Shown: positions 6,994-61,151 of the stretch, piece after piece | Position numbering within the stretch: position 1 is the stretch's first letter | How the letters are laid out: each line of letters opens with the position of its first letter | Virus record (IMG/VR): IMGVR_UViG_3300025168_000089 | Coordinates: 1-61,151 of that record | Source of the DNA: a virus | Lineage: Duplodnaviria > Caudoviricetes | Direction: 5' to 3' (one strand) | DNA length: 61,151 nucleotides | Translations under genes and position numbers: made by a program | Notes under the pieces: generated by a model | What the model was told of the DNA's origin: nothing | The model's database searches: none | Seen by the model: only the letters and a program-made list of their open reading frames with translations

Positions 6994-7001
6994 AATAAAG
7001 G

Positions 7002-7023: not shown

Positions 7024-7030
7024 TAATATT

Positions 7031-7447
7031 ATGGCAGAACAACAAAGATTTTCAAAAATTTCAACTTTAATGAATGCTATTTTTGGTAATAGTACTCCTG
7101 ATCAATCTATACCCGGACATGAAATGTCAGAAAATGATATGATAGCTCAAAAAGCAAACGATAAAAAACTTCGTAAAGATACTTTTAAAAAAATGTTAGC
7201 TGCTTCTCAAAAAGCTACAGAAGAACAAGGAAATGAAATGATTAAAGGAGTTAAACTTCAACTAGGTGGAAATCCATATGATTTAAGTTCAGTTAAAATA
7301 AGACCTATGGAAAGTAGAAACAGTCCTTTATTTGCAAGCTTAAATGATATACAATCAGGTAATATGAAAAATATGGGAGAGAATCAAGGAAGTTTAATGA
7401 AAGCTTTGTATGGCGATAATCTTCCACAAACAGTAAATAGGAGATAA
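7031..7447 (+). CDS. hypothetical protein
   Basis: ORF track 7004-7447; GTG 7004 is buried in the hairpin so ATG 7031 preferred. Confidence 0.65.
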   Translation: MAEQQRFSKISTLMNAIFGNSTPDQSIPGHEMSENDMIAQKANDKKLRKDTFKKMLAASQKATEEQGNEMIKGVKLQLGGNPYDLSSVKIRPMESRNSPLFASLNDIQSGNMKNMGENQGSLMKALYGDNLPQTVNRR

Positions 7448-7449
7448 GT

Positions 7450-7761
7450 ATGATTTCAGACGTTAAACAGGCAACTTTAGTTGCAGATGGACGTTTTCAA
7501 AATAACCATGCTGGCGCAGGAACATATATTGGTCGTTCACGTTTGAAAGGCGTAACTGGAAGATGTGATTCAGCGGCAACTGCACAAATAAAATTATATG
7601 ACGGTACTGACGCAACGGGTACTTTAAAATATCATTTATATTGGGGAGCAGCTGCTGGAGATATGTATCAAGAATATATTTCTGATGACGGCATATTATT
7701 TGAAAATGGCATTTTTGCAGATTTAATTAACTGTAACGCAGCGTCAATTATTTGGGGCTAA
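7450..7761 (+). CDS. small virion structural protein
   Basis: 103 aa beta-rich, DDGILFENGIF motif, structural operon. Confidence 0.65.
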   Translation: MISDVKQATLVADGRFQNNHAGAGTYIGRSRLKGVTGRCDSAATAQIKLYDGTDATGTLKYHLYWGAAAGDMYQEYISDDGILFENGIFADLINCNAASIIWG

Positions 7762-8448
7762 ATGGCTGTTTCAGGGACAACTGCATTTAGCTTAACAGTT
7801 AATGATTGCATAATTGAAGCTTTAGATAGAATTGGCGGATCACCAGTTCTTGGGTATGATGTAAAATCAGCTCGAAGAAGTTTAAATTTAATGTTTACTG
7901 ATTGGGCTAATAGAGGTCTTAATCAATGGACGTTAGATAAACAAACTGTAACAATGATTACAGGGGACGTAACATATTCATTAGGATCAAGTACTATTGG
8001 ATTAGTTGACGTCTATATTACACGAGATTCCACAGATTATGGAATGAATGAAATTTCTCTTACAGACTATAACGTTTATCCTAATAAAGTAGAACAAGGT
8101 AGACCTAGTCAATATTATTTACAAAAAGATTTAGACCCTATTTTATATATTTATCCAGCTCCAGAAAATAACACTGATGTTATTACTTATTGGAGATTAA
8201 AAAAAATAGATGATATTACAGCTTCTACAGTGAGTGGAACTGAACAAACTTTTGAAGTACCATCAAGATTTTATGAAGCTATGACTTCGGGCTTAGCTTA
8301 TTATATGAGTTTAAAACGTGCAGGAGTTGATCCTAATAGGTCAATGTTTTTAAAACAAATGTATGATGAATCTTTTATTAGAGCTAGAGATTCTGATTTA
8401 AATTCGTCAGTTAATATAGTTCCAAATTATGGCGTCAATTTCTACTAA
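7762..8448 (+). CDS. head-tail adaptor / tail tubular protein
   Basis: SARRSLNLMFTDWANRGLNQW, GRPSQYY, YIYPAP motifs. Confidence 0.75.
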   Translation: MAVSGTTAFSLTVNDCIIEALDRIGGSPVLGYDVKSARRSLNLMFTDWANRGLNQWTLDKQTVTMITGDVTYSLGSSTIGLVDVYITRDSTDYGMNEISLTDYNVYPNKVEQGRPSQYYLQKDLDPILYIYPAPENNTDVITYWRLKKIDDITASTVSGTEQTFEVPSRFYEAMTSGLAYYMSLKRAGVDPNRSMFLKQMYDESFIRARDSDLNSSVNIVPNYGVNFY

Positions 8449-8821
8449 AAAAGGAGGTAAAGCTCCAACACAAAAATATGCTAATGGGAAATGGGCGTAT
8501 GCTATATCTGATAGAAGTGGTTTACAATTTCCTTACAATGAAATGGTTAAAGAATGGACAGGGGCATTAGTTCATTCATCAGAGTGGGAAGAAAAACAAC
8601 CTCAACTTGATCCAATTGTATATACTGATGCGACAGCTTTAAAAAATCCTCGACCACCAGTAAATATGTTTACAGGTAATATTCCTGAACCCACAGGAGT
8701 ACCTAATCAAATTACGAATGTATTTCCTGGCACATTTGGTGCTACAGGACTTTCATTCCCAATGTCTACAGGAGAACAAATAAATGCCAGCATCGGAAAC
8801 GTCACAGTTATCATTAGTTGA
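8429..8821 (+). CDS. conserved virion-module protein
   Basis: YAISDRSGLQFPYNEMVKEWTG...EEKQPQL motif. Confidence 0.65.
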   Translation: MASISTKKGGKAPTQKYANGKWAYAISDRSGLQFPYNEMVKEWTGALVHSSEWEEKQPQLDPIVYTDATALKNPRPPVNMFTGNIPEPTGVPNQITNVFPGTFGATGLSFPMSTGEQINASIGNVTVIIS

Positions 8822-33620: not shown

Positions 33621-35086
33621 ATCCATTCTTTCCAATTATCTCCTGTAATTGTATTAGCTAAAGATTTTTTGTTTTTAAGACTACTAAATATTTTTTCATC
33701 TATAGTATTAGGAGTTACAAAATCAATATAAGTAACATTATTTTTTTGCCCAATTCTATGTGGTCTATCTTCTGATTGTAATCTTGCTTCTAAGTCATAA
33801 GTATTAGCATAATAAATTACAGTTTTAGCTGCAGTTAAAGTTATTCCATAACCTCCCATACGGGGATTAGCTATAATATATTTATAATAACCACTTTGAA
33901 AATCTTTTATAATTTGTTGTCTATCTTCAGATTTAGTTTCTCCAAAATAAGTAGCTACAGGGATTTTAAAATGTTCTTTTAATTTATTTTGAATTTCTTT
34001 TACTGACCTTTTATAATTAGCCCAAATGATTACTTGACCATCTGTTTCCTCTAAAACTTGAACTAATTCAGTCAATCTAGGATTACCTCCAGAAATTGTT
34101 TCTTCAGTACCGTCATCATGTTTAACAAATCCGCATAAGACTTGATGAAGTCTTAATAATCGAGTAATAACTAAAGGAGCTGTTATCGATTTTTCTTTAG
34201 CTAATTCAACGTAAGCTTTTTTACGCAAAGTTTCATATATTCTTTTTTGTTCTGGAGAAAAATCTATTTCTCTTTTTTGGTATAATTTATCAGGTAAATC
34301 AAGACAGTCATCTTTTGTTACTCTAAACATGTGTTCTTTAATTGAATCTTTAAGTTCATCTAAATTTTGATAATCAACTACTTCATGAAAAGTTTTCATA
34401 TTAATAGTTCTTCTACGCAAAACACAATATCTATTTCTAAATCCATAAAAACTACAATTTAAAACGTATTCAGATAAAAATGACATTTGAGTATAAATAT
34501 CAATAGGACTTTGAGTAATAGGAGTTCCTGTTAATACTCTCCTAAATTTAGACTGTTTAGATAACTTTAAAATATTTTTAGTTCTTCTCGCAGTGCGATG
34601 TTTAATGGTACTTGACTCATCAACAACTACTAAAGACTTATGTACATTAAGAAAACGTTGAGTATAATTCAGTCCTTTTGTTGTACTAAAAGCCTCTACA
34701 TTAATAATAAATATTTTTAATTTATGTGTATCTTCCCTTAAAAAATCTTTTAATCTTTTAATATTAGATTTAGTTTCAACGGGTTTCCAAAGTTCTAAAT
34801 GAGAGTATTCCATAACATCATCGGGCATATGAATTGGAATCTCAGCTTGTTCCCAATTTCTATAAACACCTTTAGGCGCTATAATAACTGCAGAATTAAT
34901 TTCGCCCTTTCTATATAGATAAGCTATATTATCTACTATAACTTTAGATTTACCAGTACCCTGTTCCATAAATAAAGCATAGTATTCTTTATCCCTACTT
35001 ATATTAAAAGCATCAAGTTGATGTTTAAATGGTTCAGTTTTAAACTTAAAGTCCTTAACTTTATCGTCACTAAATATGATTTTCAT
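33617..35086 (-). CDS. SNF2-family (SF2) helicase
   Basis: MEQGTGKS, VVDES, LTGTP, GYGITLTAA, QSEDRPHRIGQ. Confidence 0.92.
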   Translation of the reverse strand: MKIIFSDDKVKDFKFKTEPFKHQLDAFNISRDKEYYALFMEQGTGKSKVIVDNIAYLYRKGEINSAVIIAPKGVYRNWEQAEIPIHMPDDVMEYSHLELWKPVETKSNIKRLKDFLREDTHKLKIFIINVEAFSTTKGLNYTQRFLNVHKSLVVVDESSTIKHRTARRTKNILKLSKQSKFRRVLTGTPITQSPIDIYTQMSFLSEYVLNCSFYGFRNRYCVLRRRTINMKTFHEVVDYQNLDELKDSIKEHMFRVTKDDCLDLPDKLYQKREIDFSPEQKRIYETLRKKAYVELAKEKSITAPLVITRLLRLHQVLCGFVKHDDGTEETISGGNPRLTELVQVLEETDGQVIIWANYKRSVKEIQNKLKEHFKIPVATYFGETKSEDRQQIIKDFQSGYYKYIIANPRMGGYGITLTAAKTVIYYANTYDLEARLQSEDRPHRIGQKNNVTYIDFVTPNTIDEKIFSSLKNKKSLANTITGDNWKEWI

Positions 35087-35163
35087 TTTTTACTTTCTTT
35101 AAAAATTTAATTATATATAAAGAATTATTATTATAAAGTAAAATTTTAATAGAAAGGAAAGAA
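35087..35163. promoter_or_regulatory. divergent promoter region
   Basis: Very AT-rich gap between divergent genes; AGAAAGGA SD on plus strand, AAGAAAG on minus. Confidence 0.55.
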
Positions 35164-35505
35164 ATGAAAAAAGGTAAAGTATATGTTGTTCAAGAGAATC
35201 CTAAGTTTAGTGTTCTTACTGCTGGGCAATATGGAGAATTAAGTGTTCTACTTCCTTTTGGATCTCAAGTAGTTTTAAGCGTAGCTCCTACATTACATCT
35301 AATTAGAAAAAAGTTAAGAGATTTTTCTGATGACGATTATATCGTTGCTATCGGCGACCCTACTGCAATAGCTATTGCATGTATGGTAGCAGGAGAAGTA
35401 AATAGAGGTGTAGTTAATATGCTTAAATGGGATAAAAGAGAAAAGATGTATTATCCCGTACAAATAGATTTGACTGGAAGAAAGGAGAGAGAGAAAAATG
35501 GCTGA
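35164..35505 (+). CDS. hypothetical protein
   Basis: KVYVVQE, AGQYGEL, DDYIVAIGDP, LKWD. Confidence 0.7.
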   Translation: MKKGKVYVVQENPKFSVLTAGQYGELSVLLPFGSQVVLSVAPTLHLIRKKLRDFSDDDYIVAIGDPTAIAIACMVAGEVNRGVVNMLKWDKREKMYYPVQIDLTGRKEREKNG

Positions 35506-38515: not shown

Positions 38516-39300
38516 AATATTTATTTTTTGACGTAGAAACAACTGGGTTATGGAAAAGAGATTTAGAAGCAACTGATCCTAAACAACCTAAAATAGTTCA
38601 AATTGCTGCTCAATTAACTGACAAAGATGAGAAAGTTTACGCACAATTAGCTTGTATAGTACAACCAGATAAATGGTCTATACCTAAAGAAGCTGAAGAT
38701 ATTCATAAAATAAGTGATAATATAGCTTTGCAATATGGTGTTCCTCTGATAAATGTATTAGGAATGTTTAATTCTCTAGCAGCACAAGCTGACGTATTAG
38801 TGGCTCACAATACATCATTTGATTTACAGATGGTATTAAGAGAATTTAATGCGATAGGAAAAAGTTTTAGGATTCCTAAAGAGCAACATTGTACGATGAT
38901 GACTGCTAAAGATATTTTAAAATTAGAAAGTAATTTTAATGACTATAAATTTCCTAAACTAGAAGAAACATATAAACATTTTTTAGGAGCAGGAGGATAT
39001 CATAATTGGCACGATGCTCTTACTGATATTATTATATGCCGAATAATCTACTTCCACATGAAAGCGAAAGGAATAAAAATGGAAAAACCACGTGCAATGC
39101 CTAAAGCATTAATTAAAAATTTGGACGAAAAAATATACAAAGAGTTTTTAAATCTTATAAAATTTATTAAAGAAGATACTTTAAATGATTGGGAAAAAGG
39201 TTTTCTTAAAGACCAAAAAGAAAGACATGAGAAATATAAAGAAAAAATACTTATGAGCGATAAACAAATGAATATATTAAGAAAGTTTAAAGATAAATGA
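38512..39300 (+). CDS. DEDDh 3'-5' exonuclease (DnaQ-like)
   Basis: FDVETTG, AHNTSFD, HDALTD. Confidence 0.9.
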   Translation: MKYLFFDVETTGLWKRDLEATDPKQPKIVQIAAQLTDKDEKVYAQLACIVQPDKWSIPKEAEDIHKISDNIALQYGVPLINVLGMFNSLAAQADVLVAHNTSFDLQMVLREFNAIGKSFRIPKEQHCTMMTAKDILKLESNFNDYKFPKLEETYKHFLGAGGYHNWHDALTDIIICRIIYFHMKAKGIKMEKPRAMPKALIKNLDEKIYKEFLNLIKFIKEDTLNDWEKGFLKDQKERHEKYKEKILMSDKQMNILRKFKDK

Positions 39301-40259
39301 GAGTATTAGTAACAGGTTGCGCTGGTTTTGTAGGATCACATCTTACAGAACATTTAGTTAATAGAGGAGATACTGTTTACGGTATAGATAATTTATTAAC
39401 AGGGCAAGAAAAAAATATAGGAAATTTGCATAGTTTTATAGAAGCAGATATTAGTAAAACTAATGATATGAAAGATATTATAAAACAAATTATAAATGAA
39501 GGACCTATTGATTTAATTTATAATTTAGCATGTCCTGCAAGTCCTGATCACTATATAAAACATTCTCTTAAAACTTTAGATACTTGTTATTTAGGAACTA
39601 AAAATATTTTAGATGCTGCGTTTTTAACAAATTCTATGGTCATACACACATCTACTTCAGAAGTATATGGAAACCCAGATCATAGCCCTCAAGAAGAAGA
39701 TTATTACGGAAGTGTAAATTCTTTTGGACCACGAGCATGTTATGATGAGGGTAAAAGAGTAGCAGAAGCACTTATCTATGAATATATTCGTTTATATAGA
39801 TTAGATATTAAAATAGCAAGATTATTTAATACTTATGGACCTCGTATGGCTGTTAATGATGGTAGAGTTATATCTAATTTTATTTGCGCTGCTTTAGAAA
39901 ATAAAGAATTATTATTATATGGCAATGGGCTTCAATCTCGTTCTTTTTGTTATGTATCAGATACAATACACGCTTTATTAGGGCTTGCAGAAACTACAAA
40001 ATTAAATAAACCAGTTAATATTGGCAACCCAGATGAAAAAACAATTTATAATATTGCTGAATTAATAATTGCAATGACTGATTCTAAATCAGGAATCATG
40101 ACAGTTGCACATAAAAAAGACGACCCTTTACAAAGATGTCCTAATATAGAAAGAATTAATATGTTATTAAATTGGAAACCAGAAATAACTTTAACAGAAG
40201 GACTAAAGAAAACCATAGAGTATTTTAGAAAATGTTTAATAAAGAAAACACCAACGTAA
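39297..40259 (+). CDS. uxs: UDP-glucuronate decarboxylase (UDP-xylose synthase), extended SDR
   Basis: GCAGFVG, LACPASP, TSTSEVYG, GPRACYDEGKRVAE, FNTYGPRM..DGRVISNF. Confidence 0.85.
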   Translation: MRVLVTGCAGFVGSHLTEHLVNRGDTVYGIDNLLTGQEKNIGNLHSFIEADISKTNDMKDIIKQIINEGPIDLIYNLACPASPDHYIKHSLKTLDTCYLGTKNILDAAFLTNSMVIHTSTSEVYGNPDHSPQEEDYYGSVNSFGPRACYDEGKRVAEALIYEYIRLYRLDIKIARLFNTYGPRMAVNDGRVISNFICAALENKELLLYGNGLQSRSFCYVSDTIHALLGLAETTKLNKPVNIGNPDEKTIYNIAELIIAMTDSKSGIMTVAHKKDDPLQRCPNIERINMLLNWKPEITLTEGLKKTIEYFRKCLIKKTPT

Positions 40260-41764
40260 TATTAGGTCCTCCTGGGACTGGTAAAACTACTTCATTACTT
40301 AATAAGCTTGAAGCAGAAATAGAGGCAGGAGTTAAACCTCGCACTATTGGATTTGTGAGTTTTACTCGCAGAGCCATTAAAGAATCACGAGAAAGAACTA
40401 TTTCTCGTTTTGATATTAATGAAGAAACAGATTTAGATTATTTTAGAACACTTCATAGTATTTGTTTTCGTTCTTTAGGATTAAATGGAAAACAAATATT
40501 TAAAGGAAGTCACGTTACTGAATTTAAAAAACTTTTAAAAATAGATATGTCAGGTGGAGTAGAAGAAGATGAAATAGTCACATCGGGAATAAAGATTGGC
40601 GATAAAATGTTATTTTGTGACCAATTAGCTAGAGCAATGATGAAACCTTTAAGAGATACTTGGAGAAGTTTAGATTGTGAATATTCATGGAAAGAACAAG
40701 AATTATTTTCTAATACATTTAGAAAGTTTAAAGAAAAAAGAGGACTATCTGATTTCACTGATATGCTTATAACTTTCTTAAAAGAAGGTGTAGCACCTCC
40801 ATTAAAAGTTTTATTTGTTGATGAGGCACAAGATTTAACGATACTTCAATGGAAAGTAGTGAGTAAATTAGTTGAGAATTGCGATAGATTATATATCGCA
40901 GGAGATGATGATCAAACTATTTATAAATGGGCGGGTGCTGATATTGATACATTTCTAAATCTTAAAGGTAATATAGAAGTGCTTCCTTATAGTTATAGAT
41001 TACCTTCTAAAGTTTATGATTTAGCAATCGAGATTAGCTCACGTATAAAAAACAGATTTGCAAAAGAATGGAAAAGCAGAAAAGAAGAAGGTACTGTTAA
41101 TTATGTATCTGCTATAGAATATATAGACATGAAAGAAGGACCATGGCTCATCCTCTCTCGATATAATTATCAACTTTATTCAATTCAAAAATTTTTAAAA
41201 ACTCAAGGATTTGTGTTTGAAAACAAGTACGGAGGGTTTAAAGCTAATAAGCATGTTCAAGGAATTAGAGCATGGAAAAAACTTATGAATAAAGAAAAAA
41301 TTGTATATGAAGAAATAAAAAAACTATATTCTTGTTTACGAACAGGAAGTGGTATAGAAAGAGGATTTAAGAATTTAAAAACTATTGACGGAGATATAAT
41401 TAATTATCATAAAGAAGAATTTGATTTAGAAAGTTTAAGAATGCACCATGGGCTAAAAGCTAAAGGTAAATGGCAAGAAGCATTAGAGATGATTCCAGAA
41501 GAAGATAAATATTATTATGAAGCTTTAGAAAAAACTGGAGATATAAATGAAGATAGTCCACGAATACGATTAAGTACGATACATGGAAGTAAAGGAGCAG
41601 AAGCTGATAACGTAGTATTACTCACTGATGTTTCTTATAAAACTTGGAAGAATTTAGTTAAAGATGACGATGATGAGCATCGTGTTTTTTATGTAGGAAT
41701 TACACGAGTAAAAAATAATTTATTTATTGTAAATCCTCAAACTGAATATAGTTATAGGATATAA
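40232..41764 (+). CDS. UvrD/Rep-like SF1 helicase
   Basis: GPPGTGKT, TLHS, VDEAQD, GDDDQTIY, STIHGSKGAE, YVGITR. Confidence 0.92.
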   Translation: MFNKENTNVILGPPGTGKTTSLLNKLEAEIEAGVKPRTIGFVSFTRRAIKESRERTISRFDINEETDLDYFRTLHSICFRSLGLNGKQIFKGSHVTEFKKLLKIDMSGGVEEDEIVTSGIKIGDKMLFCDQLARAMMKPLRDTWRSLDCEYSWKEQELFSNTFRKFKEKRGLSDFTDMLITFLKEGVAPPLKVLFVDEAQDLTILQWKVVSKLVENCDRLYIAGDDDQTIYKWAGADIDTFLNLKGNIEVLPYSYRLPSKVYDLAIEISSRIKNRFAKEWKSRKEEGTVNYVSAIEYIDMKEGPWLILSRYNYQLYSIQKFLKTQGFVFENKYGGFKANKHVQGIRAWKKLMNKEKIVYEEIKKLYSCLRTGSGIERGFKNLKTIDGDIINYHKEEFDLESLRMHHGLKAKGKWQEALEMIPEEDKYYYEALEKTGDINEDSPRIRLSTIHGSKGAEADNVVLLTDVSYKTWKNLVKDDDDEHRVFYVGITRVKNNLFIVNPQTEYSYRI

Positions 41765-41765
41765 T

Positions 41766-42440
41766 ATGAGTAACGATAAAAGAATAGATTACTTGAATAG
41801 TTTTCAAAATAAAATAGATAGCGATATTTATAGCGAACCTAAATCTCAATTACACTATAGTGTAATAAAGCCTCAAGCACAAAACTTTTTAAATCAATTC
41901 GGAATTAAAGAAGATAAATCAGTTATAGATATAGGTTGTGGAGATGGTTATTTTTTATCTTTGTTAAAAGAAAATGGATTTAAAGATTTAGCTGGAGTTA
42001 CTAAAGGCAAAGAAGATATTACTAATTGTGTTGATAAAGGAATAAAAAAAATATATGATACTGATATGACATTTACTCATATTAAAGAACAATACGATGT
42101 TTTATGGTGCCGGCATTGTCTTGAGCATAGTCCATATCCTTATTTAACTTTGCATGAATTTAATCGTTTAGTTAAAATGAATGGCTATGCTTATATAGAA
42201 GTTCCCGAAGCTGAAGGATATGTTAAACATGAGAATAATGCAAATCATTACTCTATGTTAACGAAAAGAAATTGGGTATCTTTAATTTTACGTTGTGGAT
42301 TCGATATAAATAGAATACAAGATATTGATTTAAGTATTAGAAATAAAGATTTTCAAGATGGACACCCCTATCCCGAGCAATGGTGGGCTTTTTATTTAAC
42401 TAAAACAATTGATTTAAAATTTATGGAAGGAAAAATATGA
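41766..42440 (+). CDS. class I SAM-dependent methyltransferase
   Basis: VIDIGCGDG, RHCLEH, GYAYIEVP. Confidence 0.85.
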   Translation: MSNDKRIDYLNSFQNKIDSDIYSEPKSQLHYSVIKPQAQNFLNQFGIKEDKSVIDIGCGDGYFLSLLKENGFKDLAGVTKGKEDITNCVDKGIKKIYDTDMTFTHIKEQYDVLWCRHCLEHSPYPYLTLHEFNRLVKMNGYAYIEVPEAEGYVKHENNANHYSMLTKRNWVSLILRCGFDINRIQDIDLSIRNKDFQDGHPYPEQWWAFYLTKTIDLKFMEGKI

Positions 42441-43498
42441 AAGCAATAGGAAGTTATATATTCGCTGGAGGGTTTACTATTGGCGTTAAAAAACATTTTG
42501 ATATTGAGGCACATTTAGAAGGTGATGGAGCGTACGGAGCAGACACATTTTCTTTAAATTATCCAAATATACCTATATTTGAAGGACCAGATAATTGGCC
42601 TATAGAAAAATATAAAGATAAAATAGATTTTGTGTATGGTAATCCCCCTTGCGCTCCCTGGAGTACGTTAGGTTCAGGAAGTAAAGGAGCAGATGGTTGG
42701 AAAACTGATCCTCGTATTAGTTGTTGGAACGATGTATTTTCTTTACTTTATAAAATAAGGCCTAAAGTTTTAGCTATTGAATCAGTTCCCCGTGTTTTTT
42801 CAGAGACAGGAGGTAGACCAATGATAATGGATTTTACTAAAAAAGCTAATGAAGAAGGTTACGCCGTTACACATTTATTAGTAGATGGACAATATACGGG
42901 ACTTCCTCATTCAAGAAAACGATTTTTCTTTTTAGCACATAAAGGAAATTTTAATCCTCCTGCTCCTAACTGGAATCCTGCACCAAATGTAGGAGAAGTA
43001 TTAGATGAATTAAAAGCAGATGGAATTGAAGCAGGTCATACTGCAACTTTAAGTGAAAATGAAATGAAATTAACTAGAATGGCTAAACCTGGAGAATCAT
43101 TGAGAAATATATGGGAAAGTTTAAATCCCCCTGAAACTTGGAAAAGGTCACTTAAAGGACGTAAAGGAGTTATAGGTAGACCTCAATTTATGAAATGGAG
43201 ATTAACTCGAAAACAAATAATGGGAGTTATTGCAGGAAGTTTTTCTATTCACCCTGAAGAAGATAGACTTTTAGGAATACAAGAACTCTGCGCTTTTTGT
43301 GGATACCCAACAGATTATAAATTTTCAGGAGCAAAATCAGGGTGGCCTAGTTTATTAGCTAGAGGAGTAATGCCTCCAGTAGGTGAATGGTTAGCTAGAA
43401 ATGTAAAAGCAATGATAGAATCTAATTCGGGATTTGAAGTTAATCATAAAGTTATAGATTACCGTAAACCAACAACAGGAGATTTATTTAATGCTTAA
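42437..43498 (+). CDS. C5-cytosine methyltransferase-fold protein with atypical SAM motifs
   Basis: GNPPC (IV), IESV (VI), SRKR (VIII), RLLGIQEL...GYP (IX); motifs I and X divergent. Confidence 0.8.
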   Translation: MKAIGSYIFAGGFTIGVKKHFDIEAHLEGDGAYGADTFSLNYPNIPIFEGPDNWPIEKYKDKIDFVYGNPPCAPWSTLGSGSKGADGWKTDPRISCWNDVFSLLYKIRPKVLAIESVPRVFSETGGRPMIMDFTKKANEEGYAVTHLLVDGQYTGLPHSRKRFFFLAHKGNFNPPAPNWNPAPNVGEVLDELKADGIEAGHTATLSENEMKLTRMAKPGESLRNIWESLNPPETWKRSLKGRKGVIGRPQFMKWRLTRKQIMGVIAGSFSIHPEEDRLLGIQELCAFCGYPTDYKFSGAKSGWPSLLARGVMPPVGEWLARNVKAMIESNSGFEVNHKVIDYRKPTTGDLFNA

Positions 43499-43871
43499 AG
43501 ATATAGAAGAATTTCATAAAAAATTTGGATTTGAAAAAAGAGTGGGTATCAAAAATAATAAAAATTTGGTAGACTTTCGGATTAAATTCTTAGAAGAAGA
43601 ATTAAGAGAATTTAAAGAAGCAATTAAAGAAGAAAATGATGCAAAAGCATTAGATGCTTTAGTTGATTTAACATATGTAGCTATAGGAACAGCTTATCTT
43701 TTTGATTATCCGTTTTGGGCTGCTTGGACAGAAGTACAGAAAGCTAATATGGCAAAAGTAAGAAAAGAAAGTGAACGTTCAAAATTTGATGTAATAAAAC
43801 CTAAGGGTTGGAAAGCACCTAATATTGAACAAATAATAAATATATTTAAAAATTGGAAGGCATGGTCATGA
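43491..43871 (+). CDS. MazG-like all-alpha dNTP pyrophosphatase (dCTPase/dUTPase candidate)
   Basis: EFHKKF, EEELREF, DALVDLTYV, EVQKANMAK, KPKGWKAP. Confidence 0.85.
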   Translation: MLKDIEEFHKKFGFEKRVGIKNNKNLVDFRIKFLEEELREFKEAIKEENDAKALDALVDLTYVAIGTAYLFDYPFWAAWTEVQKANMAKVRKESERSKFDVIKPKGWKAPNIEQIINIFKNWKAWS

Positions 43872-44911
43872 AAGTATTAGTAACAGGATTTACTGCTAAA
43901 GGTATAGGCAGTGGTAAAAATGTATTAGAGATTGCAACAGCAGCTAATTGTTTACCAAGAGCATTAAGAGAATGCGGAATAGAAGTGGATCATAAGTCAG
44001 TTACTCCGGGAGATGATATATCAGAATATGATAAAGTAGTAGTATTTGCTTTTGCTCCTAATTCTTTACCGTCATCTTATTTATATGGAGGTCTTTATAC
44101 TTTATTGAAAAGACCAGACGCATATATAGCATTAGATGATTGGCAAACTAAAGATATAAAACAAGGATGTGGTACTTTTGCACGTGACGGACATTGGAGA
44201 TTATGGAAAAGAGTAAGTAAAGCAGGTAACTCTGTGGGTAAAAAATTCTTTCATGAAGCACAAGCTTATAAAAAAGAAATGGAAGATTTAATTACTCAAT
44301 TAGCTTTTGAAAAATGGCCATATAAAGTACTAGCACCAGTTTATAAAGGTGGAGATGTATCTCAATTAGGGATAGATTCCAAAGAAATAATACCATGGGA
44401 TCCAACTCCTGTTACTGATAGTTATAAAGCAGGAAGTAAATATAATCAATCTTTATTTTCAAGTATAAATAGTATTCCTGAAGTTAAAGAAAAAGAATGG
44501 ATCATGGCTTCTTTAATTCAAAAACAAAGTTGGTTTAAACGACAAAAATTCGAATGGCCTGTAACTTGTTATGGTAATCCAAATCTTAATCAACGAAGAT
44601 TAACTGAGCCCGATTTATATAATGAATATTTAAGAGTGAGGGGAATATTAATACCTCCTCATTATCATACGATAAAAGGAAGTGGTTGGTGGAGAGTTCG
44701 TTACGGAATGATAGCAGACGCAGGTTGCATAGCTTATGGAGAAACTGAAGAAACTAAATTATTTGGAGATTCTTATCAAGTATCTTTATCTGATATAGAA
44801 AAAATGAATGATAGTGAATTAAATGATTTAGCTGAAATTCAAAAAAAAGATTTTAATTCTACAGTATGGAATAAAAATAGATTAAATACTTTTATAAGCG
44901 ATTATTTTTAA
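43868..44911 (+). CDS. GT-B DNA glycosyltransferase-like (T4 beta-glucosyltransferase-like)
   Basis: About 350 aa like T4 BGT; DISEYDKVVV, YIALDD, WRVRYGMIADAG and DLAEIQK align by eye with BGT segments as I recall them; located among nucleotide-modifying genes. Confidence 0.6.
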   Translation: MKVLVTGFTAKGIGSGKNVLEIATAANCLPRALRECGIEVDHKSVTPGDDISEYDKVVVFAFAPNSLPSSYLYGGLYTLLKRPDAYIALDDWQTKDIKQGCGTFARDGHWRLWKRVSKAGNSVGKKFFHEAQAYKKEMEDLITQLAFEKWPYKVLAPVYKGGDVSQLGIDSKEIIPWDPTPVTDSYKAGSKYNQSLFSSINSIPEVKEKEWIMASLIQKQSWFKRQKFEWPVTCYGNPNLNQRRLTEPDLYNEYLRVRGILIPPHYHTIKGSGWWRVRYGMIADAGCIAYGETEETKLFGDSYQVSLSDIEKMNDSELNDLAEIQKKDFNSTVWNKNRLNTFISDYF

Positions 44912-45516
44912 TGAGAGATACATCAAATACAGTGAAAGGAATTATTATAGTAGAAGGTGCAGACTGTACGGGTAAAACTACTTTAACAGATTTATTTCGT
45001 AAAAAATTTAAAGCGAGATATATGCACTTACGAATTCATAAAAAAATGGAAGTATGGCATACTGCTACTGTTCGTAGAGCAATTAGATTAGCTAAAAATG
45101 AATTAGTTGTAATCGATAGACATTGGCCATCAGAAGAAGTTTATTCTTATGAAAGAGCAGATGGACCTGAATATAATCCTTTAAAACTTTATAAAAAATT
45201 AAAAAAAGCAAATACATTATATGTATGGTGTGCTCCTGAAGATAGTGCTAAAGTTATACGAACACATAGAAAAAAGAAAGAAGAACGGCATGAAGAATAT
45301 AGTGATATTACTCGAATTGTTGATAGATACAAACGTTCATGGTATGGTTTAAACTATGAGCATAATAACTTTCTTAAATCTCTAGGGGAATTAAGATGGC
45401 GAAAAAACTTCATACGATATGACGTTTTTAAAGAAGGTCATAAGATTGATAATAAATCTTATGATATAATTAATCGACTACGATATTTGAGAGGAGAAGC
45501 AGTATGGACGGTTTAG
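44911..45516 (+). CDS. dNMP kinase (thymidylate kinase-like)
   Basis: IIVEGADCTGKTT P-loop, VIDRHWPSE. Confidence 0.85.
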   Translation: MRDTSNTVKGIIIVEGADCTGKTTLTDLFRKKFKARYMHLRIHKKMEVWHTATVRRAIRLAKNELVVIDRHWPSEEVYSYERADGPEYNPLKLYKKLKKANTLYVWCAPEDSAKVIRTHRKKKEERHEEYSDITRIVDRYKRSWYGLNYEHNNFLKSLGELRWRKNFIRYDVFKEGHKIDNKSYDIINRLRYLRGEAVWTV

Positions 45517-46304
45517 CAGCAGATAATGTTTGGAATGATGCTATTTTAGATATTCAAGGAGGATTAAAATCATCGCCTCGTGGTATGAAAACACGAGAAA
45601 AAATAAATCATACTACTATGTGTGATATGCGATATCCTATCGTTACTAATAAAAAAAGATTATTAGGCTATAATTTTATGGTACAAGAAGCTATTTGGAT
45701 ATTAAGGGGTGATAATAGATTGAGCACGATAAAACATTATTCTAAAATAATTAGTAAATTTAGTGATGATAAATATTTCTTTAGAGGAGCTTATGGTCCT
45801 AAAGTTATAGACCAACTTCAGTATGTGTGTCACGCACTAAAAGAAGATAGAAACACGAGACAAGCAGTTATAAATATTTGGAGAGAAAGTCCATATGCGA
45901 CTAACGATATACCTTGTACTATATCATTTCAATTTTTAATTCGTGAAGATAAATTACATATTATAGCTAACATGAGGTCTAATGATTTATGGTTAGGCTG
46001 GCCTTACGATAATTTTAATTTTTCTATGCTCGGCGCATACGTTGCTTTATTATTAAAAGACATATATAATATAGAAGTGGGACTAGGAATAACGACTATT
46101 AATGCAGGGTCACGTCACTTATATGAACCTAACTTTGAGTCAGCAGATATGTGTACACATTCTAATTATGAAGATTATGTTAACTATAAACCATTGAATT
46201 TAAAGGATTATACTAGTGCAGAAAATTTCTTAGACCATTTAGAATTTGTATCTTTACCTAACTCTAAAGGATTTGCACATGAATTTTTTAATGAGACCAA
46301 ATAA
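45504..46304 (+). CDS. thymidylate-synthase-fold enzyme, probable dCMP hydroxymethyltransferase
   Basis: GAYGP, TRQAVI, DIPCT, MRSNDLWLGWPYD (Asp at the dUMP-specifying Asn position), GSRHLY. Confidence 0.8.
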   Translation: MDGLAADNVWNDAILDIQGGLKSSPRGMKTREKINHTTMCDMRYPIVTNKKRLLGYNFMVQEAIWILRGDNRLSTIKHYSKIISKFSDDKYFFRGAYGPKVIDQLQYVCHALKEDRNTRQAVINIWRESPYATNDIPCTISFQFLIREDKLHIIANMRSNDLWLGWPYDNFNFSMLGAYVALLLKDIYNIEVGLGITTINAGSRHLYEPNFESADMCTHSNYEDYVNYKPLNLKDYTSAENFLDHLEFVSLPNSKGFAHEFFNETK

Positions 46305-54843: not shown

Positions 54844-55215
54844 ATGCAAATACAACCTGCTATAACTGGCTCAGGACAAAAACCCGCAGCTAGAAAGACT
54901 ACTCCAGAGGCTAAGAAAGCCAATGGAAAACAAAAAGTAATTAATACTCCAAGCGAAAAGACTGGGGTATTAAAATATGATGGTGATGCTAGAATACAAC
55001 TAGCAGCGCCTAAAAACCCTAAACGAGTAGGGTGCTCTGGCTGGAAAAGATTTAATTTTTATAAAAATGGTATGAAGATTAAAGATTTCATAAAAGCTGG
55101 AGGTAAAACAATAGACTTAGACTGGGACAGAGAACGAGGCTTTATCGCTACTGAAGATAGAGACAAAGTAGGGTCACAGAGTAAGTCGCCAAAAGCAACT
55201 TTCAATTTGAAATAG
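54844..55215 (+). CDS. basic early protein, NxK(R/K) family copy 1
   Basis: KNPKR....WKRFNFYK...GGKTIDLDWD; promoter plus AGAAAGGAG SD. Confidence 0.8.
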   Translation: MQIQPAITGSGQKPAARKTTPEAKKANGKQKVINTPSEKTGVLKYDGDARIQLAAPKNPKRVGCSGWKRFNFYKNGMKIKDFIKAGGKTIDLDWDRERGFIATEDRDKVGSQSKSPKATFNLK

Positions 55216-56715: not shown

Positions 56716-57003
56716 ATGTTAATTTATGGTATAATAATTAAAATGACACCAGAACAAATACATAATTTAGTCATAGCTTCTGATTTCCCTGTTCCAGAGG
56801 ATTTAGATAAAAGTAAGAGTGAGGGAAGATTTAAATACACAAATGATGGAATAGAAGATGATGTTGAAATATATAATTACACAGGCAATACATATTTAGA
56901 TATAAGTCAATATATTGGAGGAACTAATATTTTAATAGCAGGAAAACATTCATTAAAAGATTTAAAACAATATTACTCCTGGACTTATTCAACCTTTAAA
57001 TAG
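56716..57003 (+). CDS. hypothetical protein
   Basis: 95 aa ORF filling gap. Confidence 0.6.
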   Translation: MLIYGIIIKMTPEQIHNLVIASDFPVPEDLDKSKSEGRFKYTNDGIEDDVEIYNYTGNTYLDISQYIGGTNILIAGKHSLKDLKQYYSWTYSTFK

Positions 57004-57067
57004 AAATTGTTTAATTATGTTTTAAAAAGTTTACTATTAATAATAACAAAAAGAAAGCGAGAATGAT

Positions 57068-57325
57068 ATGAAAGAAGGACGATTAAAATATGCCGAACTT
57101 TCTAATTATGACGAAGAAGCTGGACCTTTACTTTTTGAGGGACAAGTCGTTGGAGATTGGAGAGAAGAACACGATAGTGCTTTAGGGACATATAAATATA
57201 TTAGCCTTAACGCCAAATTACCTATTAAAACAGAAGATAATATACAATATCAATTTCACGATCATTACTTTACTGAGCAAGATATTATTGATAACATCTT
57301 AAAAATAAGAGGGAAAACAAAATGA
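57068..57325 (+). CDS. hypothetical early protein
   Basis: Promoter motif upstream. Confidence 0.7.
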   Translation: MKEGRLKYAELSNYDEEAGPLLFEGQVVGDWREEHDSALGTYKYISLNAKLPIKTEDNIQYQFHDHYFTEQDIIDNILKIRGKTK

Positions 57326-57639
57326 AAGCAGAAGAAATACAAAAATTAGTTGTCGTAGATGTAAAAGATGACAGATTTACTGTTACTAAGAAAATAGGGA
57401 TGTGCAGAGAACTCGAACATTTTGCTACTGTGTATCATCTTTTAAATCCACCCCTTGGAAAAACCACTGAAAGAAATTTAACAAAAGTAGAATTATACGA
57501 TGGTTGGGAGGACACGATAGTTTATATGAAAGGTCATTTAACTCTCGATAACATCTCCACTTACCTTACTTACTTAACAAACTGTGTAGAAGATGATACA
57601 GAATTCCAGTTTAAATCTCCCGATTTATTTAAGATGTGA
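57322..57639 (+). CDS. hypothetical protein
   Basis: ATGA overlap, GAGG SD. Confidence 0.7.
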   Translation: MKAEEIQKLVVVDVKDDRFTVTKKIGMCRELEHFATVYHLLNPPLGKTTERNLTKVELYDGWEDTIVYMKGHLTLDNISTYLTYLTNCVEDDTEFQFKSPDLFKM

Positions 57640-57655
57640 ATAAAAATCTATACAT

Positions 57656-57686
57656 TTAACCTCTAATAAGATAAATTAGAGGTTAA
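57656..57686 (+). promoter_or_regulatory. hairpin sequestering the terS Shine-Dalgarno
   Basis: TTAACCTCTAAT / ATTAGAGGTTAA 12 bp perfect stem; GAGG in 3' arm, ATG 5 nt later. Confidence 0.7.
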
Positions 57687-57690
57687 TTTT

Positions 57691-58128
57691 ATGGATAACA
57701 TTATAGAATTTTCTGAGGTCGAGAATAAGATTTTATCTGACAAAGAAAAAAAATTCGTTAATAACATTATCTCTGGTTTACCTAAGAGAAAAGCGGCTTT
57801 AGAGGCGGGTTACGCCGAATCTTCTGCTCACGTACAAGCCACTCGCTTACTAAAGAAGGATAAAATCCTGAGGGCGGTGAGCCGAGGGCGTGCGGTCCAT
57901 CAGCAGCAGTCTATTCACACCTTAGACAAGGAGGTTGAGAAACTTGACGTGTTGTATGAGGCGGCCGTAGCGAAAAAACAACTGGGAGCCGCCGTCCAAG
58001 CTGCGAGGTTGAAGGCCCAACTCTTGGGGTACTTGGTTGAGAAGAAAGAAGTTAAACACTCCGTCCTTGACACGATGAGCGATGATGAATTGATCACCTA
58101 CCTTGACAAACTATCCTCAGCAGGTTGA
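57691..58128 (+). CDS. terS: terminase small subunit
   Basis: LSDKEKKFV...AALEAGYAESSAHVQATRLLK HTH; AVQAARLKAQLLG. Confidence 0.85.
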   Translation: MDNIIEFSEVENKILSDKEKKFVNNIISGLPKRKAALEAGYAESSAHVQATRLLKKDKILRAVSRGRAVHQQQSIHTLDKEVEKLDVLYEAAVAKKQLGAAVQAARLKAQLLGYLVEKKEVKHSVLDTMSDDELITYLDKLSSAG

Positions 58129-58129
58129 C

Positions 58130-58337
58130 TGTTGATGCGTGATTCACACACACAGGGACATCCACAACCTTCAGCAATCTCCGCCCTTGGCGGTTGAGTG
58201 TTGATGCGGGAGGCTTGAGCATTGAGCCGTCCTCCACCGTCCGCCCGCCTTGCGGCGGTATGAGGTGGCGGGAGGATGCGGTGGGAGGAGGAGTGAGGCG
58301 GAGCCAACCTATATATAAATATCAACATTTATCAACA
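58130..58337. repeat. GC-rich repeat block A
   Basis: TGTTGATGCG x2 (58130, 58199), GCTTGAGCATTGAGCC (58213), CCGCCTTGCGG, inverted ATCAACA x2. Confidence 0.75.
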
Positions 58338-58437
58338 AAAAGTTATTAACATTTATTATTTTAAATTGTTTCTTTTTGTCTAAAAAAATCGTATAATAAT
58401 CCATAGCAATAAAGCTATATAGAAAGGAGAACATAAT

Positions 58438-58824
58438 ATGTCTCAGAATAAAAAATTTCCTACTAGCCTTAAGGTGTTAGAAGGACGCGCAATAATGTTT
58501 CTTTTTGTTAACCAAAAGAAACCATCAGGAAAAGCTTACGCAAGATACGAGCACTATAAAACAGCGCACAGTATCGCAGAAGCGGTGGACCGAGGCTTTA
58601 CAGCTTTAGACATGCAATACGAAACGAAATCTAATGGGAGATTTAAAAAATTTGTTACCATGTGTTTTATCGAAGGCGTCAATATAACGAAAGACACCAA
58701 AGATATTTTAACCGTGGTTATCAAAAAGAATAGAGAAGTACTCAAAGAGTTACCGAAAGCTATTCAAGCCAAAGCACAGGCAAACATCGAGAAATTCGAG
58801 AAATTAGCCGCAGCTATAAAATAA
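58438..58824 (+). CDS. basic early protein, NxK(R/K) family copy 2
   Basis: NKKFPTSLKVL...VNQKK; TATAAT promoter, AGAAAGGAG SD, own terminator. Confidence 0.85.
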   Translation: MSQNKKFPTSLKVLEGRAIMFLFVNQKKPSGKAYARYEHYKTAHSIAEAVDRGFTALDMQYETKSNGRFKKFVTMCFIEGVNITKDTKDILTVVIKKNREVLKELPKAIQAKAQANIEKFEKLAAAIK

Positions 58825-58831
58825 CATTACT

Positions 58832-58863
58832 CGGGGGCGTCACACAGGCGCCCTCGTTTTTTT
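58832..58863 (+). terminator. intrinsic terminator
   Basis: CGGGGGCGTC-ACACA-GGCGCCCTCG plus T7. Confidence 0.85.
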
Positions 58864-58865
58864 GT

Positions 58866-58951
58866 GCTTGAGCATTGAGCCACCGCACTCCGCCGCCTTG
58901 CGGTTGAGCATTAAGATTAAGTCATTGAGCATTGAGCATCAACCCTCCGCC
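58866..58951. repeat. GC-rich repeat block B
   Basis: GCTTGAGCATTGAGCC (58866, identical to 58213), CCGCCTTGCGG, further TTGAGCA units. Confidence 0.75.
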
Positions 58952-58973
58952 TTAGACTTACGTGTAAGTCTAA
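58952..58973. repeat. near-perfect palindrome
   Basis: TTAGACTTAC-GT-GTAAGTCTAA. Confidence 0.8.
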
Positions 58974-59091
58974 TAATAAATAAATACAAATAATAAAATA
59001 TAAAATACTAAACCAAACTAAAATTTTAACGATTTTATATCTGTTTAAAACTAAAAATAAATAATTTATTATAAATATAGAAAGGAAAATT

Positions 59092-59148
59092 ATGACGATT
59101 TTAATTATAATAATCGCTTATTTTTTAATAATAAGCTTTACTTTTTAA
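59092..59148 (+). CDS. 18 aa hydrophobic peptide
   Basis: AGAAAGGA SD; MTILIIIIAYFLIISFTF; SD and ATG retained inside the depleted zone. Confidence 0.65.
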   Translation: MTILIIIIAYFLIISFTF

Positions 59149-59192
59149 TAAATAGTCTATAAAAATATAGATAGAAAGGAGAAAAATAGAAA

Positions 59193-59591
59193 ATGGAAAA
59201 TAATAGTAATAAAAATAAAAAATTTCCTTCTTCGTTAAAAGTATTAGCGTCTAAAAAAATTCTTTTTAGATTAGTTAATATTAAAAGAGAAAATACTCGT
59301 TCGTTCGATATTTTCGAAGAAGCGAAATTTTCGACTACTATTAAAGATTTATTTACTTTAACGAATTATCGTAAAGTAGATTATTCTTACGATACTAAAG
59401 AGAATAATCGCTTTTCTACTATACGTTTAATAGTAGAAAATAAAAACGATACTAAAGAAAATAAAGAAGAATTAAAAACTATTATCGAAGAAAATAAAAA
59501 TTTCTTAAACGATAAAGATAATAAAATTCTTAATAGAAAATCTATAGAAGAAAATATTAAATTCTTCGAAGAAAAAATTTCTAGTCTTTAA
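59193..59591 (+). CDS. NxK(R/K) family copy 3, recoded without CA/TG/CC/GG
   Basis: NKKFPSSLKVL...VNIKR; no Gly, His, Gln, Cys, Trp or internal Met. Confidence 0.85.
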   Translation: MENNSNKNKKFPSSLKVLASKKILFRLVNIKRENTRSFDIFEEAKFSTTIKDLFTLTNYRKVDYSYDTKENNRFSTIRLIVENKNDTKENKEELKTIIEENKNFLNDKDNKILNRKSIEENIKFFEEKISSL

Positions 59592-59614
59592 TTACTAAAT
59601 ATATATTTAATAAT

Positions 59615-59648
59615 AAATCTCTCTAATTAATTTTAGAGAGATTTTTTT
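59615..59648 (+). terminator. intrinsic terminator with CT/AG-only stem
   Basis: AAATCTCTCTAA-TTAATT-TTAGAGAGATTT plus T tract. Confidence 0.75.
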
Positions 59649-59809
59649 ATTTTTAAAATTAGTAATCGAATAAGAAAAAATAAATCGTATTAAGTTTAAT
59701 CGAAAAAATTAGTATAAGTTTCTTTTTAGAATTTAGAAAAGTTGGTGGATTAAGCGTAAGCTTTATCACTATTGACTGTTATATGTATAAATAAAATATA
59801 TTATATATT

Positions 59810-60040
59810 GTGATTAAAGTGTGGTTATTATATTTAGTTATCTCTATGCCTAATATGCCTTCTGTAAAAACAAATTCTTTTTTGTATATTTCAGAAGAAA
59901 AATGTATGGAAGTCCTTGTTTCTTTTATGAATGTATATGAATCTAAATCTGAAGAATATAAAAAAAATTTAAAAACAACAGGATATTGTTTACCCTTTGA
60001 ATCATTTCCTATAAAAGGTATACATAACTTTAATTTATGA
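59810..60040 (+). CDS. hypothetical protein
   Basis: 76 aa, hydrophobic N-terminus, two Cys, ATGA overlap with terL. Confidence 0.65.
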   Translation: MIKVWLLYLVISMPNMPSVKTNSFLYISEEKCMEVLVSFMNVYESKSEEYKKNLKTTGYCLPFESFPIKGIHNFNL

Positions 60041-61151
60041 AACAGGAATTAGTACAGAAAGCTAAAAATATTTTATTAGATCCGAAAGTTTCCAAAAATG
60101 TAAAAGAACAAGTTTTCGAAATATTAGAGAAACAAAGAACAAAGGCCACTAATAGTGCCGCAAAATCTGGAATTTTGGATTATTCTAAACATATGTACCC
60201 TGGATACAATACTCCTGCTCATATAAAACTTATTGGACAAAACCTAGAAAGTTTAGAGAAAGGTGAGATTGATAGATTAGCTATCTTTATGCCACCACGA
60301 CATGGTAAATCTATGTTATGCTCAGAATTTTTTCCTGCATGGTACCTAGGCCGTAATCCTAGAAATTTTGTTATTCAAGCAACTTATGCTCAAGAACTCG
60401 CTGATGATTTTGGACGCAAGGTGCGTAACCAATTAAAATCAGAAGATTATATGAGAGTCTTTGAGGGTGTAGGTCTAAGAGATGACTCTAGCTCAGCTAA
60501 GAGATTTCACACAGTTCACGGTGGAACGTATAGCGCAGTCGGTGCGGGTGGTGCTATTACAGGTAGAGGTGCACATTTATTAATTATCGATGATCCTATA
60601 AAAGGGCGTGAAGAAGCAGAATCCGCACTTCAGAGAAGAAACTTAATCGAATGGTATAAAGCAGTCGCTTACACGAGATTACAGCCAGGAGGTAAAGTTA
60701 TCTTAATTCAAACTCGATGGCACGAAGATGATTTAGCTGGATGGATATTAGAGAACTCAGGTGAAAACTGGAAAGTTTTAGACCTACCAGCGATAAACGC
60801 AAATGGTGATGCTTTGTGGCCAGAATCATATCCCTTGCCCAAATTAGAAAAAATTAAAGCTACAGTCGGCGATAGAGTATGGGAGTCATTATACCAGCAA
60901 CGCCCAACGGCAGAGCAAGGCGCTATACTCAAGAGAGATTGGTGGCGTAAATTGGATCACGAACCTCAATACGATTTTATCGTTCAAAGTTATGATACTG
61001 CTTTTAGTACGAGAGAGTCTGCTGACTTTTCAGCAAGAACGACATGGGGAGTATTCTCACGAGTTAATGAAGAAGGTCTCATAGAAGCATGTATACATTT
61101 AATCGAAGCGTGGAAAGACAGAGTAGAGTATCCTGATTTAAGACGTATAGC
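60037..61151 (+). CDS. terL: terminase large subunit (runs off window end)
   Basis: Own translation: MPPRHGKS Walker A, GRGAHLLIIDDP Walker B, QTRWHEDDL, VQSYDTAF nuclease motif. Confidence 0.95.
   Translation, partial: MKQELVQKAKNILLDPKVSKNVKEQVFEILEKQRTKATNSAAKSGILDYSKHMYPGYNTPAHIKLIGQNLESLEKGEIDRLAIFMPPRHGKSMLCSEFFPAWYLGRNPRNFVIQATYAQELADDFGRKVRNQLKSEDYMRVFEGVGLRDDSSSAKRFHTVHGGTYSAVGAGGAITGRGAHLLIIDDPIKGREEAESALQRRNLIEWYKAVAYTRLQPGGKVILIQTRWHEDDLAGWILENSGENWKVLDLPAINANGDALWPESYPLPKLEKIKATVGDRVWESLYQQRPTAEQGAILKRDWWRKLDHEPQYDFIVQSYDTAFSTRESADFSARTTWGVFSRVNEEGLIEACIHLIEAWKDRVEYPDLRRI

Follow-up and report, generated by a model that had tools for sequence, protein, structure and literature searches.

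A gene depleted of CA/TG and CC/GG dinucleotides beside its ordinary twin between the terminase genes of a phage contig: a possible target-free expression cassette

The IMG/VR contig IMGVR_UViG_3300025168_000089, a whole contig of a marine phage with 61,151 nucleotides (nt) that was analysed over its full length and will be referred to as the window, carries two neighbouring genes of one protein family, gene A and gene B, between the genes for the small (terS) and the large (terL) terminase subunit. Gene A has an ordinary composition, whereas gene B, together with its non-coding flanks, lies in a 650-nt stretch (59094-59743) that is almost free of the dinucleotides CA, TG, CC and GG. The features of this module are listed in Table 1.

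The base composition of the stretch predicts 24.1 CA, 24.9 TG, 4.3 CC and 7.5 GG, against 0, 1, 1 and 2 observed. Summed up, CA+TG occurs once versus 49 expected and CC+GG three times versus 11.8, with about 61 expected for all four, and CG is enriched about four-fold (22 versus 5.7). At gene B, the run free of TG and CA extends over 549 nt, compared with 81 nt for the runner-up in the genome. The few exceptions are functional: the TG belongs to the ATG of gene B, the CC to its single Pro codon, and the two GG lie in the ribosome-binding site of gene B and at ATG-G; within 59044-59743, TG is limited to two start codons, those of a mini open reading frame (mini-ORF) and of gene B. All four banned steps can be written as one rule, namely no cytosine with A or C on its 3′ side on either strand. 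In the encoded protein B, Gly, His, Gln, Cys, Trp and internal Met are completely absent and one Pro is left, in agreement with the losses described in a first-pass annotation made from the sequence alone. The non-coding flanks of gene B follow the ban as well, and its terminator is built with a stem of CT/AG steps only, whereas gene A is followed by an ordinary G+C-rich hairpin; the CT/AG-only design was also found in a second clade. The extent of the stretch follows that of the expression unit: it opens with the ribosome-binding site of the mini-ORF and closes shortly behind the terminator. The runner-up run (35085-35165) lies in an A+T-rich divergent intergenic region that separates the only large minus-strand gene, encoding an SNF2-type helicase, from the replication genes, and by a rough estimate it may be due to chance.

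Table 1: Positions of the terminase-flanked module and of related features in the window (aa, amino acids).
Feature	Position	Strand	Basis or remark
Small terminase subunit gene (terS), upstream module boundary	57691..58128	+	Pfam Terminase_2 E 3.9e-9; PHROG small-terminase families
G+C-rich repeat block 1, one TTGAGCATTGAG copy and related words	58100..58300	.	Exact-copy positions; arrays in relatives
Gene A, 128 aa, ordinary-composition twin: TG+CA 38, GG+CC 22, G+C 0.37	58438..58824	+	
G+C-rich terminator-like hairpin 3′ of A	58832..58866	+	
Repeat block 2: three TTGAGCATTGAG-type copies, then a conserved short hairpin	58860..58960	.	
CA/TG- and CC/GG-depleted stretch, 650 nt, G+C 0.19	59094..59743	.	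Without GATC, without GANTC
Mini-ORF, 18 hydrophobic residues, own ribosome-binding site	59092..59148	+	
Gene B, 132 aa, depleted twin: TG+CA 1, GG+CC 2, CG 17	59193..59591	+	
Terminator-like hairpin of B, CT/AG-only stem, then T-run	59615..59654	+	
Large terminase subunit gene (terL), downstream module boundary, runs off the contig	60037..61149	+	PHROG 38 E 7e-87
Gene for the 54844 protein, distant third relative of A/B	54844..55215	+	41-residue core, hhalign
Nucleotide and DNA modification cluster (context)	39297..46301	+	

The ban targets the DNA and not the protein. When the codons of gene B were resampled with the codon usage of the genome, a mean of 22.9 TG+CA was obtained (minimum 11 in 2000 samples) compared to the single one observed. 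Where a two-fold, pyrimidine-ending codon precedes a codon starting with G, gene B uses C in 7/7 cases, in comparison to 19% C genome-wide, a choice that explains part of the CG excess, and the serine codons of gene B switch family. Synonymous divergence (dS) between the same genome pairs was approximately 0.14 for B (range 0.03-0.14), 0.37 for terL and 0.58-0.65 for terS (0.3-0.65 for both terminase genes together) and approximately 1.0 for A (range 0.9-1.4), so that the dS of B lies 3-10 times below that of the neighbouring genes. In a comparison of eight close relatives, a banned step would arise from 54% of all transitions that the stretch allows; of the 62 transitions seen, only 14 produced one, and these 14 sit at the edges of the stretch or in two leaky relatives. 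The ban is old and still enforced by selection, and the low dS, the codon resampling and the junction choice bear out the earlier claim that selection at the DNA level overrides protein sequence and codon choice.

Proteins A and B are clearly paralogous. A BLASTP comparison yielded 39 identical residues out of 129 (30%) over the full length with an E value of 4e-18, which sustains the end-to-end paralogy claimed before, and an alignment of 24 sequences from both subfamilies contains 12 invariant columns. Both proteins are basic, with isoelectric points of 9.9 (A) and 9.4 (B). The family is unnamed and phage-only. A profile search of 1.84 billion representatives detected 58 proteins at E ≤ 0.001, 25 of them at E ≤ 1e-10; the 24 best matches, whose sequences were inspected, have 86-201 residues, and four lower matches of 569-702 residues are matched over short stretches only. 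The protein encoded at 54844 had been proposed to share the core of the two: this holds as a distant relation in a profile-profile comparison (hhalign probability 81.7%, E 1.1e-5, 41 of approximately 125 columns), but BLASTP gave no alignment of this protein with A or B. Neither Pfam nor PHROGs holds a family for A, B or the 54844 protein, ESM Atlas returned unnamed viral clusters only, and DNA and protein searches of the deposited phage collection retrieved nothing for the region or for B. Structure prediction, which had been suggested as a check, gave a confident AlphaFold2 model for B, with a predicted local distance difference test (pLDDT) of 91.3 and a predicted template modelling score of 0.85 (pLDDT of A, 82.7), but no fold match that points to a function. 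For model A, the best Foldseek matches had E values of 1.2 (PDB) and 0.7 (BFVD) with VIA Z scores of at most 4.7, and for model B the best Foldseek E value was 7.6 with VIA Z scores of at most 3.9, none of them convincing. B is thus predicted with confidence to fold, and its fold, for which no relative is known, is probably new.

Relatives of the locus were collected from IMG/VR, and dinucleotide runs were measured in the first 22 loci. In 21 of these, a run of 363-574 nt free of TG and CA was present, including loci with a B only 62-64% identical. Most of the 115 loci with a family member have 1-4 TG+CA in the depleted gene, and a search with B led to 79 protein clusters, with identities as low as 47%, each of which contains 0-3 of the residues His, Gln, Cys, Trp, Met, Gly and Pro, with 27 of the 79 lacking all seven kinds, Pro included. 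At 114 of the 115 family loci at least one of the terminase genes terS and terL is visible too, and wherever both are, they flank the family member. The stretch is 600-800 nt long in all lineages, and its limits are sharp and conserved. The ban is tied to this slot between the terminase genes, adjoining repeat arrays 3′ of terS.

The ordinary twin is less constant. Distinct depleted genes whose locus includes terS number 66, and for 34 of them a normal copy was detected between terS and the depleted gene; the other 32 have no space for a twin, the gap being 463-639 nt versus 957-1350 nt. Loci that show the normal copy alone are cut by the end of the contig. In lineage L061, the normal copy shares 67% identity with the depleted gene next to it and lacks His, Cys, Trp, Met and Gly, but contains 32 TG/CA. 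As this twin keeps the depleted amino-acid make-up with ordinary synonymous codons, its sequence clearly identifies it as the relaxed copy of a depleted gene. The window itself shows an apparent tandem duplication of repeat block and gene, with the repeat words 653 nt and the gene starts 755 nt apart. The depleted gene is therefore the constant core, and the twin probably an accessory tandem duplicate that escaped the constraint through its move to the next slot upstream. In the first-pass annotation, gene B was taken for the recoded copy, made first from modification-free DNA, after which the unconstrained copy would take over. With the depleted gene in 66/66 and the twin in 34/66 loci, this direction is probably reversed, and the takeover fails as a general rule since 32 of 66 loci have no twin and the twin of L061 is itself a relaxed depleted gene. 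A family tree of 23 representatives needs at least three state changes and has short branches, biased composition and long branches that meet; it hardly constrains the order of events. Gene A of the window (58438-58824) has an excess of CG, 18 versus 6.9 expected from its protein and the codon usage of the genome (maximum 17 in 2000 samples), which may have been inherited from a depleted ancestor or may belong to the locally G+C-rich region.

The depletion might in principle be explained by mutation, that is by a context-specific cytosine deamination of duplicated DNA, resembling repeat-induced point mutation (RIP), that turned CA, TG, CC and GG into TA, TC and GA in one copy. The signature is alike, with loss of CpA/TpG, a G+C content of 0.19 and CG kept, the stretch is one member of a duplicate pair, and a C5-methylase homologue is present in the window. 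Nevertheless, we regard this origin as extremely improbable: a frame of 132 codons is intact in DNA of 80% A+T and predicted to fold with a pLDDT of 91, serine codons switch family, the NNC|G junctions show codon choice, the limits are sharp and conserved, the same ban is found in single-copy lineages, and synonymous change is suppressed instead of raised. The last two points largely refute it. With its intact frame and low dS, B does not show RIP-type decay; selection, not mutation, is responsible.

The surroundings of gene B are conserved as well. Of 74 distinct regions preceding the depleted gene, 72 contain a hydrophobic ORF of 17-38 residues (most 17-26), and the cassette has its own ribosome-binding sites and terminator. 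Exact copies of TTGAGCATTGAG occur in the window only at 58215, 58868 and 58925, with a one-mismatch copy at 58904. Short direct-repeat arrays with TTGAGC, TTGAC or TTGATC words were located 3′ of terS in all five lineages inspected (L019, L027, L061, L111 and the lineage of the window), the word being TTGAGCATTGAG in the window and CTTGACT or TTGATC in other lineages. They could possibly be terminase-binding or regulatory repeats. In some lineages the arrays are dense in GATC and adjoin a depleted stretch without any. This neighbourhood might indicate a structural DNA element, a stretch that needs particular mechanical properties for packaging or ejection next to terminase-binding repeats, with the gene being incidental. 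The position always directly 3′ of the arrays after terS and the constant length of 600-800 nt across lineages would agree with this idea, but the flexible steps TA and CG are abundant or enriched, the limits follow the expression unit and the loss of GATC/GANTC words is not mechanical, which makes it very unlikely.

A consensus promoter scan yielded 10 matches versus 10.9 expected, not above shuffled sequences, and candidate promoter words are not repeated above chance. In one poly-A metatranscriptome, only two contigs mapped to 57000-61000, both within the cassette, at 59119-59269 and 59426-59576 with a depth of 2, a weak hint since poly-A selection could favour an A-rich message, DNA carry-over is possible and contigs alone do not show transcription. 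Rfam gave no matches at 57500-60200, and no tRNA genes were found.

In five leaky lineages (L007, L021, L067, L088 and L093), the new banned steps on the coding strand comprise 39 CA versus 8 TG, with CA:TG ratios of 6:0, 9:2, 9:3, 10:2 and 5:1, respectively. In four of them (L021:2866-3249, L007:4760-5155, L067:3995-4381 and L088:3992-4387), gene B has regained 6-13 banned steps, nearly all of them coding-strand CA, and these loci are close relatives of strict lineages. The pattern may reflect a relaxed constraint in some hosts or a strand-specific reader. It also bears on the idea that the ban cleans the message from false signals, as it removes ATG/GTG/TTG starts, Shine-Dalgarno-like GG and TTG-type promoter elements on both strands, so that a very strongly expressed message would be initiated only at the intended sites. 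The TGs in 59044-59743 are two start codons, the GGs lie at ribosome-binding sites or ATG-G, and the leaks imply that TG is more strongly avoided on the sense strand. But this bias can also be obtained from the preference of the genome for A-ending codons, and on the sense strand of strict lineages CA and CC are missing to the same degree as TG and GG, which would require an equal concern about antisense RNA. Moreover, a single TG or GG does not amount to a start site or a promoter, so that banning all of them would be disproportionate, and the loss of GATC/GANTC is left unexplained. We therefore consider avoidance of false signals quite improbable.

For the avoidance of longer words, B genes of seven different lineages were compared with codon permutations in which the ban was retained, and first-order Markov versions of the tests were run as well; the seven lineages are kin, which makes the p-values too optimistic. 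GATC was observed 0 times versus 6.5 expected, GANTC 0 versus 10.2, ACGT 2 versus 9.8, GTAC 0 versus 3.6 and GAGC/GCTC 0 versus 3.6. Genome-wide, GANTC is not avoided (136 versus approximately 141) and GATC mildly (112 versus 181), so that in the seven B genes both restriction-type words are depleted relative to the rest of the genome. Such avoidance fits host nucleases, and a set of these as the reading agent is a possibility we hold tentatively, on the unlikely side. Other words are scarce over the whole genome: CGCG is nearly absent (2 versus 31 expected, at 26385 and 58486), and GAAGAC (3 versus 15.4) and CTCTTC (10 versus 33.2) are rare, which suggests an avoidance of particular host restriction sites by the genome as a whole.

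With respect to the remainder of the window, 92 of 96 picked non-overlapping ORFs are encoded on the plus strand. They include head, adaptor and tail genes, primase, helicases and a family-A DNA polymerase approximately 40-44% identical to those of HTVC023P-type pelagiphages and other phages. A GroES (Cpn10) homologue is encoded at 3076-3480 among the head genes and is annotated in HTVC023P and 023Pt_psg01, too. The terL gene has 371 codons before the contig ends (61149), and a 96%-identical relative has a frame of 504 codons; the contig of this relative, 64,233 nt in length, was circularly assembled with ends overlapping by 97 nt. This overlap is an assembly artefact, and the contig ends were rejected as physical genome ends.

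The modification cluster encodes a sugar epimerase, an S-adenosylmethionine-dependent methyltransferase, a C5-cytosine methylase homologue (42437-43495), MazG, a 352-aa protein, a P-loop kinase (weak match) and a thymidylate-synthase-like enzyme (E 2e-20). The 352-aa protein (43853-44908) adjoins the C5-methylase homologue and has no Pfam family; its relatives, 24-30% identical, occur in T4-like Aeromonas, Morganella and Providencia phages and in Gordonia phages, and one relative record says glycosyltransferase. A thymidine-hypermodification cluster has three marker enzymes, a TS-like hydroxymethylase, a 5-hmdU DNA kinase and an aGPT-PPlase; besides the thymidylate-synthase-like protein and the weak kinase match, an aGPT-PPlase was not recognised among the proteins of the window, nor was a TET/JBP-type dioxygenase identified there, the sole 2OG-Fe(II) (2-oxoglutarate- and iron-dependent) oxygenase belonging to another Pfam family.

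This cluster raises the question whether the reading agent is the phage's own context-specific base modification. Its enzymes would modify C before A or C (or T before G), and a cassette without these contexts would stay unmodified and, plausibly, readable by the host machinery or unseen by modification-dependent defences until a phage factor has been made. The cluster with its C5-methylase homologue is kept in 3/3 complete relatives, the ban can be expressed as a single cytosine rule, and the additional loss of GATC and GANTC would be understandable if the stretch, being unmodified, lay open to restriction. To our knowledge, no enzyme with this context of C before A or C is known, and the thymidylate-synthase-like enzyme, MazG and the kinase suggest replacement of a whole base prior to replication, which would include the cassette. 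The E. coli phage ECML-117 also has a weaker CA/TG-poor zone, and we know of no base modification in this phage. We thus consider this explanation unlikely. Phage C5-methylases with dinucleotide (GpC) specificity have been described that direct hypermodification (bioRxiv 10.1101/2023.12.21.572611), and thymidine hypermodification has been called sequence-context specific (PMC8989533), its motifs being stated as unknown in a further report (PMC5889632). Modification clusters of the thymidine type were reported in some HTVC023P-type clades (PMC9599517). DarT1 may represent a low-specificity G-modifying defence for which no consensus motif was reported (PMC11543638), a lead only.

The first-pass annotation suggested checking whether the family tracks modification clusters. 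HTVC023P and 023Pt_psg01 have no annotated modification cluster and no TG/CA-free run of at least 80 nt (longest 76 nt) in the 50 kb read from the start of each, which covers all but the last 10 kb and speaks for modification by the phage itself. However, the contrast with these two distant relatives is confounded as regards the A/B family, since no A/B member turned up in them but no search was aimed at the family.

Taking all findings together, the strand symmetry of the ban, its extension to non-coding DNA and terminator and the loss of GATC and GANTC argue for double-stranded DNA that enzymes read. With its length, its complete set of own signals and its place beside the terminase repeats, the stretch brings to mind the T7 leader and the T5 first-step-transfer DNA, and on these grounds we favour, with about an even chance of being right, that 59094-59743 is a target-free expression cassette on which DNA-reading enzymes cannot act. 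The cassette would consist of a predicted mini membrane peptide, gene B and the terminator, in this order, and selection would strip it of the steps and short words needed by sequence-reading DNA enzymes, leaving DNA that can be neither cut nor marked. Such a cassette would have to work while exposed, most likely as the first to act in the cell, with B as a putative protective or takeover factor that perhaps binds nucleic acids. Somewhat short of an even chance is the further proposal that an activity with dinucleotide-level specificity, not previously described, acts on phage DNA at C before A or C, which corresponds to G after T or G on the opposite strand. It could stem from a defence of the host or from the modification machinery of the phage itself, and a large marine phage group would answer it with a "clean" gene in a 13-letter amino-acid alphabet. 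Our literature searches revealed no published description of such a zone.

Several observations weigh against a target-free cassette. By our own transition-matrix estimate, the ban of four dinucleotides removes only about three quarters of the possible hexamers, so that a generic anti-restriction gain hardly explains an absolute ban; this suggests that the total ban exceeds the needs of generic site avoidance and hints at a specific reader. TCGA, AGCT and CTAG are not depleted in the seven B genes by codon permutation. For B, the searches of Pfam, PHROGs, folds and ESM Atlas provided no family, fold or annotated relative. The contig ends are assembly overlaps, and for the 21 listed sequencing runs, all in the form of contigs, no point at which molecules start or stop was reported, so that an early entry of the cassette and an early action of B would be no more than likely. 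Finally, the hosts of distant relatives suggest a SAR11-type host, which, if so, may carry few restriction systems.

Gene B represents a natural whole-gene recoding in which four of 16 dinucleotides and 6-7 of 20 amino acids were removed from a protein still predicted to fold confidently. The unconstrained twin alongside provides a natural control pair, by which cost and cause can be tested. A reader of these steps, if found, would be a new low-specificity defence or a new context rule for the modification of phage DNA. Since the signature is easily scanned, it could mark genes that must survive first in uncultured phages and thereby point to early anti-defence genes without cultures; if the proposed activity is real, comparable zones of unrelated phages would point to a general layer of phage-host conflict that has so far gone unrecognised.

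Among known systems, fungal RIP resembles the locus in that one duplicate shows loss of CpA/TpG and a lower G+C content, but B is intact, conserved and slow at silent sites, and single-copy lineages are alike. Hypermodification directed by GpC-type C5-methylases shares the dinucleotide marking, and the window has a C5-methylase homologue beside a possible glycosyltransferase; in contrast, GC is not depleted in the stretch (5 versus 5.7 expected) and no TET/JBP-type dioxygenase was identified. Classical palindrome avoidance is matched by the missing short palindromes GATC, GANTC, ACGT and GTAC and by CGCG genome-wide, but is itself genome-wide and word-specific, whereas the cassette is local, acts at the dinucleotide level and reshapes the protein. 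In ECML-117, a block of small genes at approximately 6750-8500 likewise combines loss of CA/TG with an excess of CG, with 8-17 TG+CA per 250 nt versus 27-48 elsewhere in the 12 kb read and 20-35 CG. There the depletion is three- to four-fold and does not include GG/CC, in contrast to the near-total ban, CC/GG included, on one gene with a normal twin in our window.

The closest parallel may be drawn to the T7 leader and the T5 first-step-transfer region, short stretches with their own promoter and first genes. In T7-like Marinomonas phages, with T5 as a precedent, only motifs in the first-injected region decide restriction (PMC12455610). The cassette resembles them with its 650-800 nt, its own terminator, the absence of GATC, GTAC and GANTC and the scarcity of ACGT (counted in the genes alone). 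It differs in its protein B, which is basic and without known relatives whereas Ocr is acidic, in its site between the terminase genes, and in the banning of entire dinucleotides, for which seven amino acids are given up.

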